Positions 12,001-15,000 of a stretch of DNA of 64,000 nt are shown in pieces. This DNA comes from a plasmid. Numbering within the stretch: position 1 is the first letter of the stretch; each line of letters starts with the position of its first letter. The position numbers are program-made. The stretch is from the NCBI RefSeq assembly GCF_054482525.1, contig NZ_JBTHVG010000003.1, one strand, 5' to 3'.

Positions 12001-15000
12001 GGAATTAATTTTATCATGCCCTTCAAATTCGGCATGAATACCATAGCGAACCGAGCCGTCATCGAACTGAACAACCCGTCGTACAGAATTAATCCGGACG
12101 TACTGTTTTAAGGCCCTCGCGAAATCGGCATTTAACGCCAACGCTCGTAAGATTGAATCAGCGGTTTCATTCTGCTTTTTACGATCGTATTCAAATATCC
12201 CACAGCCGGTGTTACGAAAGACCGGCTGAAGAGCATTAACCAGGTTGAAGGAATCCACGTTTCTGTCGTTTCTGTACATGAGATATCTCCTGCCCCTCCG
12301 CTATACGAAGGGGCTTGATAGGGTTACTGCCAGGCTGCGATCACTTCTTCGCACTGGAAATGAGATAAGCACTGCTGGAGTAGAAGAGCCAGCACCGCTG
12401 TGTTAGGGACGCGATTGTTACACCACGCGTTGAAAAGCAGCTGCCATGGACCGGCATAATACCCGGCCAGTTTCTTTTTTTGTTTAGCTGTACGGCAGCG
12501 GGAAATGGCCTGCTGATAAAGGCTTTCATTCTCATCACCAGCCCGTTTTTGCAGAGTGCGATAAATATACGAATAAAGACTGTCAGAACAGTTTGAAGCG
12601 TACGCCAGTTGTTTTTTCATAATACCTCCTGTTTAGAAGTATTATATGTAAACAGCCTCAGCGGCTAATAACCCGTAGCAATATAATTTGCATTTTTTCT
12701 ATTTCTGAAGACGCTTTTTAAATTAATATTTACTGAGTTATCACAACTTATTATTCTTCCCGTCTGCTGTTTTATTAATCCCCCAGTTAGTAATCACGCC
12801 AAGTCGGCGCAATTTTTCACGTTGTTCATAAATAAAAAAATCGCCAAGGCAGTCTTTTAAAACTTCACTATCCTGATATTTTATTTTTTGAAGCATCCTC
12901 GCAACTATGGCGCGTTTCAGGAATATGGCTGCATCAGACTCAAGCATTTGTGAGGACTGTCTGACGGTCTCCTGCATGTCGACGATACTGCTGAGCTTTC
13001 GTCTGACCACGCTTAGCATAGTGTCCGGGAACCGCTTAGCGGCTGAATGTAACCCGCAACAACGTTACGCATTGTTTTACTCACTGCAATTTTCCATTTA
13101 AGTCTGTTTGTTCCACCAGCTGCTAACATCAGCGTTATTCATCCTGAGGTTTCGCCCGCGATTGACAGATCAGAGGCAGCATGGATGAAATTGCCAGAGT
13201 AGATCACTGCATACGCGAATAGTGGTTTGTATTCAGTTCTGCGTTTGCCTGCTTTTCCAGTGCTGTCATAACCCGGCGGAGCATCGCCAGAGCCTGAACA
13301 GGCGAGCTCCCAAACTGCACTTTCACTTCAGCCGTATCATGATCCTGAATCAGGTCGAGTATATTCACTTCGATCCCTGCCCCGTTTTCATCTTTTGCCG
13401 TGCACTGAATACTTACCCGGGTCACCGAATCCGTCAGGACTGGCAGTGGGTTAGTTTTGTCTACGTTGATAACAGCCTTCTTCATTGCCCTGTTTCCCCT
13501 TGTCCTGAAAAAGTTACCGACCCGTCCGGATGGAGGGGTCGGTCAGAAAATCATGACTGTCCCTTGTTCATCTTATCAGCATGCTTACGCAGGTACTCTT
13601 TCAGGTCAGCATGAGCGTTGATGATATCGTTCATTTCATCATTGGTCAGAACAAGCGTGTAAGTATCAGTACTGACAGATTCACCTTCTTTAAGCTTGGC
13701 TTCTTCAGCAATACGTTCAAAAATCGGGATCGCGGTGTCTGCAATGACGGTCACAGTCTTTTTGTTCAGAACGCTGGACATGGAAGGTGCTTTACCTGCC
13801 GGGTTCTGTTTAGGAGCGCTGTCCTTTGGAGCTGGAGCCGGTTCCTGTACCGGTGGCGTATCCAGCGTCTCCGTATTGCTTTCATCGTTCAGTTGATCCG
13901 GTACCGGGGTGTTATCGGTAGTATCATCTGCCGGTTGCTCAGCACCGATGTTTTCCGGAGTCTGCGGATCTGCCATGCGCTCTTCTACCTTGGCAGCTTT
14001 GACGAATTTCAGCGTGTTTTTCGTCGCCTTGCCATAGATGGAGATCGCTTTGTTGATGTTATCTACCGCATCCTCACCGCTGTACATATACTCGTCCAGT
14101 GCAACGTACATGCTCACCTGATCGCTCACAAGCATGGTCTGTAGTTCAGAAGGCAGGTCCAGTACGCGAACCATCTGGCGAAGATGCTGCTCTGATTTAC
14201 CACGTTTTTTTGCCAGTTCCGCAAAGGTCTTAGGCTCTTCTTTATCTTCAACCAGACGCTTAATTGAAAGCGCTTCAGCTACGACAGACAGCGCCAGGTT
14301 GGAGTTGCCGGTCAGGGTGAAGAGTTCTGCTTTTGAAGCGCTACCGCGAAACTCTTCGCAGCGAATACGAGTAATGCGTTCACGCCCTTCTGCTTCCAGC
14401 TGGCGGTTTGCAATAGCGATGGAACGGATACGGCAAGCCCCCTGACGCAGTACAGGTACGCCATTAACCATCTGAACAACGATAGGCGTCACGCTGAACG
14501 GGTCTTCCATGTAGGCATCGGCCAGGCTGTTCAGGTGTTCCACAACGTGAGGCATTGAATAGTAGAGCTCGCCCATACCGGCCGTGCGGGTGTTAAAGCC
14601 TTCCTGCTCTACAACAACCGAAGGGTCAATGATAAGGCCGTTGCCTTTACGGGCACCGTTACCAGTGCGTTCCAGGTAACCACGAAGGCTGATTTCGTTG
14701 CTGTTGTTTTTTACTTCAGTTTCGATTGCGGACATTTTTGTTCTCTTTTTTGGTTGGTTGTTTAACTGCGCTACAACACAACAATACCAGGTTCGACATT
14801 TTTCCTAATAGGTTGCGGAGAAGAAAAAGTAACTTTTTTTAAAAATTTTCCTGAGGCAATACTACTCGATCCGTCCGTTTTAAATCTTCACAACAGTGGG
14901 CCGTTTTTACGTTTAAGCAAAATAACTGGTTCAGAAGGTGACTCAGAGAGAAAAGTTACTTTTCCGGTTGTCTGGGCCAGTGATGGGAGAGTGGCAGGAC

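Follow-up and report, generated by a model that had tools for sequence, protein, structure and literature searches.

The kind of system considered here, in which a protein of the ParB family serves a plasmid or another mobile element, is already known from KorB of the IncP-1 plasmids RK2/RP4, ParB of the IncC/IncA plasmids, VirB of the Shigella virulence plasmid and BisD of the integrative element ICEclc. KorB, a ParB-family cytidine triphosphatase (CTPase) clamp and global repressor, combines a ParB N-terminal domain, a helix-turn-helix (HTH), a long flexible linker (53 aa; PMC11790492) and a C-terminal domain, and reads an odd-centred 13-bp palindrome that is scattered over the plasmid backbone and also found at its own operon. 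The same architecture and the same layout recur at a locus within a stretch of 64,000 nucleotides of plasmid DNA (contig NZ_JBTHVG010000003.1 of assembly GCF_054482525.1; the whole stretch is hereafter called the window). The locus consists of the gene for a 394-aa orphan ParB-like protein, here named T, and of a 13-bp palindrome, aAAAGTWACTTTt, with two copies upstream of that gene. We propose, at a probability of roughly one half, that T is a palindrome-reading, partner-less ParB-type regulator which combines autorepression with KorB-like long-range control across the plasmid.

The window begins at its 5′ end inside the relaxase/coupling-protein operon of the Tra1 region and continues into a long array of mostly small genes, mostly on the minus strand. 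The 2.6 kb around the T gene are 100% identical on more than 500 plasmids from E. coli, Salmonella, Enterobacter and relatives, one of which is typed as IncHI2A, MOBH and MPF_F, and the T gene itself is present on more than 1,000 sequenced plasmids. Its product (WP_001272970.1) is annotated in databases only as “hypothetical protein” or “DNA-binding protein”. The following features make up the locus, the palindromes being listed without strand; open reading frame is abbreviated as ORF.

13551..14735, minus strand: gene of the 394-aa orphan ParB-like protein T (from the ORF list; 100% identical on IncHI2 plasmids)
13508..13543, minus strand: stem-loop with U-run directly after the T stop codon, likely an intrinsic terminator (from RNA folding)
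14781..14808, minus strand: putative T promoter, TTAGGA-16 nt-TGgTATTGT, with an extended -10 (read from the sequence; alternative -35 reading TAGGAA)
14825..14837: proximal palindrome AAAAGTAACTTTT, 90 bp upstream of the T ATG, at a distance of 16-17 bp from the proposed -35 and likewise upstream of it
14951..14963: distal palindrome AAAAGTTACTTTT, 216 bp upstream of the T ATG

The 394-aa ORF described in a first-pass annotation of this DNA is real, and both strings quoted from its product, LRQGACRIRS (residues 96-105) and the HTH string FAELAKKRGKSEQHLRQMVRVLDLP, were found in it; the position 14963 given there as the end of the locus is the end of the distal palindrome copy. The gene looks monocistronic because a stable hairpin (-22.3 kcal/mol, z = -3.7, with 0 of 200 shuffles equally stable) and a U-run directly follow the stop codon. 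The downstream 93-aa gene (ORF 13204..13485, minus strand) has no Pfam or PHROG match; this ORF and the small 76-aa neighbour gave no family matches, and they are not kept beside all T orthologues. No ParA gene is annotated within 20 kb on either side of T on an identical plasmid, and the deviant Walker A motif KGGxGK[ST] occurs in none of the ORFs of the window: T is an orphan, without a ParA partner nearby.

The two palindrome copies reported upstream of T are present as exact 13-mers at 14825-14837 and 14951-14963. They do not flank the promoter, as had been suggested, since both lie upstream of it, but the distances of 17 and 143 bp are correct for a -35 at 14807-14802. The promoter itself matches the consensus weakly, and a consensus promoter and terminator scan of 14600-15200 returned no calls, the putative T promoter included; it is nevertheless kept in R478, the reference plasmid for IncHI2, and at the orthologue locus of IncHI1 type (L002). 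The distal palindrome is kept in the same two places although the DNA flanking it diverges.

An AlphaFold2 model of T was built on 18 orthologues, with a predicted local distance difference test score (pLDDT) of ~90 at residues 17-255, below 50 at residues 256-321 and of 60-78 for the C-terminal helices. Together with profile searches it delimits the following parts of the protein.

14301..14687, minus strand: N-terminal ParB/Srx-like (CTPase-fold) domain, residues ~17-145 (AlphaFold2, Foldseek, subfamily profile at E 2e-15)
13971..14300, minus strand: ParB-type HTH DNA-binding domain, residues ~146-255 (Pfam HTH_ParB; profile match to 6s6h)
14157-14195, minus strand: predicted recognition helix, residues ~181-193 (pattern S-x-x-H-[LIV]-R-[QK] in all orthologues)
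13773..13970, minus strand: disordered acidic, Pro-rich linker, residues 256-321 (pLDDT <50; length and sequence hypervariable among orthologues)
13554..13772, minus strand: helical C-terminal domain, residues 322-394 (AlphaFold2 helices 325-346 and 365-390)

Compared with the PDB by Foldseek, the model matched only ParB-family structures over ~190-236 columns (E 6e-8 to 3e-5), followed by sulfiredoxin. The matches were M. xanthus ParB-CTPgammaS (7bnr), RK2 KorB-KorA-DNA (8qa8/8qa9; target template modelling score 0.66), Noc-DNA, C. crescentus ParB-parS and T. thermophilus Spo0J (1vz0), with 7ol9 and 6t1f also among the identifiers. A profile of the wider subfamily matched PDB entries over both domains (4umk at 1.9e-15, 6sdk at 1.2e-13, KorB at 9e-7), PHROG 1033, “ParB-like partition protein”, matched residues 24-255 at E 1.6e-21, and Pfam HTH_ParB (PF17762) matched residues 149-209 at E 7e-6, above its gathering score. 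The HTH profile of T matches the DNA-binding domain of C. crescentus ParB (6s6h); canonical ParB/Spo0J and Noc share the fold of T, and their HTH aligns to the subfamily profile at E 1e-13 to 2e-15. Noc, like T, is without a ParA partner and has many dispersed sites. Hidden Markov model (HMM) searches and structure prediction thus confirm the ParB N-terminal fold, ParB HTH, linker and C-terminal domain of the first-pass annotation, and on profile and model evidence T is a genuine ParB-fold protein with an N-terminal domain and HTH.

Membership of a described family is another matter. Neither Pfam ParBc (PF02195) nor the KorB domain (PF08535) matched T at E <= 1, nor was there a match to KorB_C, although one distant relative of T matched PF08535 below threshold; TIGR00180, a curated model of canonical ParB, scored 29.5 bits against a cut-off of 58.45 and covered the HTH only. 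By these tests T belongs to a separate ParB subfamily, neither KorB nor canonical ParB, which comprises at least 437 sequence clusters and is found in conjugative elements. Since T falls short of the thresholds of Pfam KorB, Pfam ParBc and TIGR00180, we describe its architecture and its logic as KorB-like without counting it among the KorB proteins. The first-pass picture of a KorB-like global silencer is well supported by comparison as regards architecture and palindrome layout, but KorB membership fails, and silencing would be an inferred step. A nuclease-type ParB-domain protein, in which a ParB N-terminal domain, frequently joined to other enzymatic domains, occurs without a ParB HTH, was also considered and is excluded by the HTH, by the full two-domain ParB architecture and by a scan of PADLOC defence families that gave no match to T.

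The two ends of the protein set T further apart from its characterised relatives. Residues 1-40 (MSAIETEVKNNSNEISLRGYLERTGNGARKGNGLIIDPSV) do not contain the motif [LFI]G[KR]G[LFI], the nearest string being KGNGL; this motif is the N-terminal ParA contact of ParB (PMC12704722). Canonical partition ParBs have both a ParA-adjacent gene and this contact motif, and KorB has the partner IncC/ParA and an N-terminal ParA-binding peptide, all of which are missing for T. KorB moreover works with the IncC ParA and with KorA/TrbA as clamp lock; no ParA adjoins T, and no KorA-like or other partner was identified. At the other end, the C-terminal domain carries a block conserved among orthologues (SSVLNKKTVT..DTAIP..DTYTLVLTNDEM) and presumably mediates dimerisation; it is predicted to be helical, unlike that of KorB, which the title of a reference in PMC10954446 describes as SH3-like.

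Within the N-terminal domain, two motifs would line the nucleotide pocket.

14421..14450, minus strand: variant phosphate-binding motif LRQGACRIRS, residues 96-105 (register from hhalign with Spo0J of B. subtilis and from HMM alignments with ParB structures)
14586..14600, minus strand: GFNTR motif, residues 46-50, putative counterpart of ParB box I (by position)

From its position and from what is generally known of ParB, we take GFNTR to be the putative counterpart of box I. In the second motif, G99-A100-C101-R102-I103-R104 of T fall on GERRxR of ParB, so that the glycine and the second and third arginines are retained while Glu is replaced by Ala and the first Arg by Cys. The box III motif ENxxR falls on T142-G143-N144-S145-N146, where the invariant Asn is one position off and the Arg has no counterpart; the GERRxR and ENxxR of canonical ParB are thus kept in part. 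Conservation by column was computed for 135 subfamily sequences with a mean identity of ~23%. N48 is found in 132 of the 135 and R50 in all of them, and the only invariant non-Met positions of the subfamily are N48 and R50 (GFNxR), G99 and R102, within a pocket consensus of RDGHCRxRA; the T-type phosphate motif reads RQG[AH]CRxR. Because these four are the sole invariant positions across so diverse a subfamily, the pocket is under strong selection. In KorB the motif reads GARRYR, in which R117 is essential for CTP binding, and N146 is required for hydrolysis and engagement (PMC11790492). GACRIR of T is one residue away from it (Arg to Cys); both proteins have Ala at the Glu position, and the Arg needed for CTP binding is retained in T as R102. 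Judged from these motifs, T may bind and hydrolyse CTP or may have lost that ability.

The dispersed palindrome noted in the first pass is over-represented in the window, where the core AAAGTWACTTT occurs 14 times against 0.03 expected (none of 100 shuffles reached 14), and its network is far larger than was seen there, with 54 sites plasmid-wide that include the tra and oriT (origin of transfer) regions. This count comes from R478, assembled from six fetched stretches, in which AAAGTNACTTT has 54 copies against 0.6 expected and exact copies are commoner than one-mismatch copies (32). The sequence logo widens the core to the 13 bp aAAAGTWACTTTt, with A at -1 in 37 of the 54 and T at +1 in 33. 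More than half of the copies (29/54) fall in non-coding DNA, which makes up 16% of the plasmid (P = 3e-10), and most intergenic copies precede a start codon by 90-220 bp. All are confined to backbone DNA: none occurs in the resistance, sil/pco or Tn10 insertions, and the widest site-free stretches fall on the IS26/mer resistance region, on the region of the Tn7-like element and sil/pco, and on Tn10. The Tn10 (tetB) of R478, with flanking ISVsa5 copies, lies between small genes at 202.3-212.5 kb, matches a gap in the palindromes and is missing at the corresponding ~9.3-10.7 kb of the window. R478 copies are also found between genes at oriT, upstream of the first Tra2 operon, next to a replication gene and within tra genes. 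The intergenic oriT stretch that separates trhR from mobI (R478 190694-190830; L011:40694-40830) contains, along with two exact palindromes, half-site-like repeats, AAAGTGACCCT / AGGGTCACTTT. A role of the palindrome as a hairpin or in single-stranded DNA was rejected, since from its sequence the 5-bp A/T-rich arms and 1-nt loop would form no stable hairpin.

In addition to the two copies upstream of T, the window contains the following palindromes.

1707..1717: centre C, inside the relaxase gene
3145..3155: inside the coupling-protein (TraD/TraG) gene
4875..4885: within the final 65 bp of the coupling-protein gene and upstream of the gene that follows
9777..9787: intergenic, 163 bp upstream of the ORF start at 9613 (minus strand)
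24741..24751: intergenic, 140 bp upstream of the ORF start at 24600 (minus strand)
26948..26958: intergenic, 151 bp upstream of the ORF start at 26796 (minus strand)
29679..29689: intergenic, 132 bp upstream of the ORF start at 29546 (minus strand)
34728..34738: intergenic, 206 bp upstream of the ORF start at 34521 (minus strand)
38940..38950: intergenic, 170 bp upstream of the ORF start at 38769 (minus strand)
43109..43119: centre C, inside an immunoglobulin (Ig)-like protein gene
47929..47939: inside an Ig-like protein gene
50153..50163: ~100 bp downstream of the Ig-like gene 47629..50049 (plus strand)
58544..58554: intergenic, 156 bp upstream of the Ig-like gene start at 58387 (minus strand), first of a pair 65 bp apart
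58609..58619: second of the pair, 221 bp upstream of the Ig-like gene start at 58387 (minus strand)

The copy at 4875-4885, which encodes K-V-T-L, is kept exactly in IncHI2, in the IncHI1-type plasmid (L002) and in a Photorhabdus element (L016), between which the surrounding DNA is 61-69% identical. Because this conservation in three diverged lineages is achieved through synonymous codons, it points to selection at the DNA level inside the coupling-protein coding sequence. Each of the three large Ig-like-domain genes of the window (41618-44035, minus strand; 47629-50049, plus strand; 55931-58387, minus strand) has palindromes upstream, inside or just downstream of it; proteins of this class are reported to be needed for IncHI conjugation (PMC6764697).

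The distribution of the palindrome among relatives of T bears on which protein reads it. The narrow T orthologue family comprises 31 clusters, with members at 35-98% identity on IncHI1, Klebsiella, Yersinia, Leclercia and Buttiauxella plasmids. A search for related loci from the orthologue alignment yielded 10 close loci, and the loci compared were those of IncHI1A (65% identity), the Leclercia type (50%), Buttiauxella (48%), Yersinia (44%) and a Klebsiella MOBH plasmid (35%). The identical palindrome is found at high density in every one of them and, as a plain observation, clusters at the T gene itself, with 2 upstream copies in IncHI2, 2-3 in IncHI1, 1 in Leclercia, 2 in Yersinia, 2 in Buttiauxella and 5 in Klebsiella; the proximal copy lies 91-98 bp from the T ATG in four lineages (IncHI2, IncHI1, Yersinia and Buttiauxella). 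When the upstream regions are aligned, the copies stand out as conserved islands within diverged DNA. The recognition helix pattern S-x-x-H-[LIV]-R-[QK] is likewise kept in all T orthologues. An IncC plasmid served as positive control: there the same de novo scan for palindromes gave as its top motif TTTCACATGTGAAA, seven times in 40 kb and once 63 bp upstream of parA, which is the sequence shown by electrophoretic mobility shift assay to bind IncC ParB (PMC10954446); the 40-kb stretch contained no AAAGTNACTTT, though it encodes a 32%-identical relative of T. As the sole ParB-like gene in the window, with its own upstream palindromes conserved in every lineage examined, T is the best candidate for the reader, on circumstantial evidence from sequence comparison.

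A quite unlikely alternative is that another protein, whether one of two T paralogues, TrhR/TrhY-HtdA or a host factor, reads the palindrome, in which case T would be one target among others and would bind other DNA. IncHI plasmids carry three T-subfamily paralogues each, the two beside T lying outside the window (P2 was searched for there as a window gene and is not in it). In R478 these are P2, at 268858-270021 on the minus strand (L013:18858-20021; 32% identity to T), and P3, at 273234-274286 on the minus strand (L013:23234-24286; 26%). Both have ParB HTH domains and near or exact upstream sites, and they share the RQGH[CT]R motif but differ in their recognition helices; P2 orthologues exist in Photorhabdus, Yersinia and IncHI1B plasmids. 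T alone, though, has 1-5 exact copies upstream of its own gene in every lineage examined, and in contrast to the helix of T, that of P2 varies freely among elements with the identical palindrome. Upstream of P3 (R478 ~274.3-274.7 kb; L013:24300-24700) there are AAATGC/GCATTT inverted and direct repeats, e.g. GCATTTACTGGAATGC / GCATTTAGGTAAATGC, which could be iterons of the adjacent replicon or sites of P3. Some IncHI-type plasmids (for example NZ_CP102501.1 and NZ_CP050763.1) have a P2-type match only and no full-length T, and one of them still has the palindrome, five times in 20 kb (L015); such plasmids resemble natural derivatives that have lost T.

Also to be weighed as a reader is the plasmid-wide circuit of R27, HtdA-TrhR/TrhY, which governs 139 of the 181 expressed genes (these rise in an htdA mutant) and whose DNA target is not known (PMC7366339). 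One site lies in the trhR promoter region, 77 bp from the start codon. Against this, of the four promoter regions that depend on TrhR/TrhY, two (F and Z) lack the palindrome when up to one mismatch is allowed, and TrhR, TrhY and HtdA contain no recognisable DNA-binding domain; the restriction of the sites to plasmid backbone DNA also speaks against another reader. The F-operon promoter region, the standard TrhR/TrhY reporter, has no palindrome even at two mismatches, and the DNA upstream of htdA has none with one mismatch or fewer. We therefore reject TrhR/TrhY/HtdA as direct readers, weakly, on the missing DNA-binding domain and the palindrome-free F-operon promoter region. The canonical plasmid ParB was rejected as well, being P1-type and encoded beside ParA, with no palindrome copy in the parA upstream region.

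In our proposal, a T dimer would bind the 13-bp palindrome aAAAGTWACTTTt through the ParB-type HTH, and the two copies upstream of the monocistronic T gene would bring about negative autoregulation. The ~54 copies on the IncHI2 backbone, in the oriT/tra regions and the small-gene array, would serve as operators or loading sites through which T acts on distant transcription units. As these sites stay clear of core promoters, T probably gets to the promoters by self-association or by a clamp-like closure of its N-terminal domains and then by sliding or spreading, as does KorB on RK2. Many KorB sites are similarly too far from core promoters for simple occlusion, action at a distance being in the case of T part of the proposal. 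The net outcome would most likely be plasmid-wide repression, lifted transiently on entry into a new cell. We infer that T binds the palindrome and clamps in a nucleotide-dependent way, and likewise the sign of its regulation, which of all steps is the weakest.

Several points weigh against this proposal. The link between T and the palindrome is circumstantial. The palindrome is identical in all lineages and does not co-vary with helix residues 182, 183 and 187, which differ in the Klebsiella orthologue, and no over-represented palindrome came up at the loci of remoter relatives in the subfamily, among them one from Comamonas and one on a metagenome plasmid. P2 and P3 travel with T, and the site upstream of P2 has one mismatch in R478 and is exact in Photorhabdus. 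R27 already has an established plasmid-wide circuit in HtdA-TrhR/TrhY (PMC7366339). With the counterparts of the first-motif Arg and of the box III ENxxR Arg missing, nucleotide binding or hydrolysis may have been lost. Lastly, the position of the sites ~100-200 bp upstream of -10 candidates fits anti-silencing equally well.

This last point opens the main rival, which we consider unlikely: T would read the palindrome as an anti-silencer or activator in the manner of VirB, acting against H-NS/Hha, and its own two sites would provide positive feedback. VirB binds at an inverted repeat and exerts its effect from sites that lie upstream. Like T it is a partner-less ParB-family protein of a large enterobacterial plasmid, and titles of cited references describe it as a CTP-requiring antagonist of H-NS; unlike T, which falls in a different subfamily, it is related to P1-type ParB. 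The candidate -10 hexamers downstream of the sites lie 21-41 nt before the ATG and have poor -35 elements, an arrangement that suits remodelling from upstream. In site-bearing intergenic regions (window 9600-9800, 38750-38950 and 58380-58550, and their R478 equivalents) such -10-like sequences are frequent and read TATAAT, TATCAT and TAGAAT. A good -10 that goes with a poor -35 is what one expects of promoters that depend on a factor. When the DNA downstream of the sites was examined for a second common motif or for a promoter at constant distance, no shared k-mer emerged, merely a loose -10-like tendency. IncHI plasmids also encode their own H-NS and Hha and are under strong H-NS control (PMC7366339). 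On the other side, the DNA that flanks the sites does not exceed the rest of the non-coding plasmid DNA in AT-richness (0.42 vs 0.415). Backbone regulators of conjugative plasmids are usually autorepressors, and the nearest characterised architecture is that of KorB, with its odd-centred 13-bp palindrome, long linker and Ala at the Glu position. BisD, compared here by its description, offers a further parallel: this ParB-like protein regulates a conjugative element from a distance, as proposed for T, but it serves an integrative element, in whose BisCD complex it is an activator.

The position of some sites has also to be considered in relation to replication. They cluster beside a RepB-family initiator gene, with five in 1.3 kb of a K. 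pneumoniae plasmid (L014:1162-2419) and two in R478 (987 and 1773), which hints at a link with replication or with the start of the first Tra2 operon. T and its palindromes might form a DNA-organising or segregation device, with centromere-like sites serving condensation, pairing, positioning or replication control and possibly with a distant ParA, a role we hold to be very unlikely. Clusters at replication genes would suit it, as would the intragenic position of nearly half of the R478 sites and the precedent of IncC ParB, which partitions with 14 scattered parS sites (PMC10954446). Yet no ParA adjoins T, the ParA-contact motif is missing from its N terminus, and IncHI plasmids already have, elsewhere, a P1-type ParAB pair (ParB PF08775) and a ParMR pair for partition. 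The intergenic, promoter-upstream bias of the sites (P = 3e-10) is moreover unexpected for a pure centromere.

The comparison with IncC ParB deserves to be drawn further. On R55, as here, the protein belongs to a large MOBH/MPF_F conjugative plasmid, and its palindrome is spread over the conserved backbone, chiefly between genes, one copy lying at the protein's own promoter; unlike T, it has a KorB domain, a partition role and a place in the parA-parB-053 operon, and its 14 parS sites consist of TTTCACATGTGAAA plus flanks (PMC10954446). The IncC plasmid pB557-NDM also encodes, apart from its ParA/KorB-domain ParB pair, a 312-aa member of the T subfamily (L032:19944-20882; 32% identity) with no palindrome evident upstream of its own gene. 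This relative corresponds to the “parB-like regulator” R55_24, whose function is not described in the account that names it (PMC10954446). In RP4, 12 operators are cited for KorB (PMC10954446), as opposed to the ~54 T-associated sites.

From the systems known so far, T thus differs in having no ParA partner, in the Cys of its phosphate motif, in a number of sites ~4 times that of KorB or IncC ParB and in the presence of three paralogues per plasmid. Literature on IncHI plasmids with ParB/KorB, on R27 regulators and on the palindrome string yielded no description of T or of the palindrome, older subscription papers not being covered. One may speculate, though we regard it as unlikely, that T is the founding example of a separate class of ParB-fold switch, defined by RQG[AH]CRxR with an invariant Cys for Arg, which would load at the ~54 sites and, together with the two paralogues, set the transcriptional state of a whole 200-300 kb IncHI plasmid, from the transfer genes and the oriT region to the small-gene array, and whose Cys-containing pocket may use another nucleotide or a chemistry other than CTP hydrolysis.

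In typhoid Salmonella, IncHI plasmids are carriers of multidrug resistance; in E. coli, Salmonella and Enterobacter they also carry mcr-1 and metal resistance. Their known regulatory circuit, HtdA-TrhR/TrhY together with H-NS/Hha, has had no defined DNA target; there is now a 13-bp element in ~54 copies, with a specific candidate for its reader, which makes plasmid-wide control of IncHI transfer and of carriage cost directly testable. If the proposal is true, it would widen the KorB paradigm to a long-range transcription regulator of ParB fold that has no ParA and an altered nucleotide pocket.

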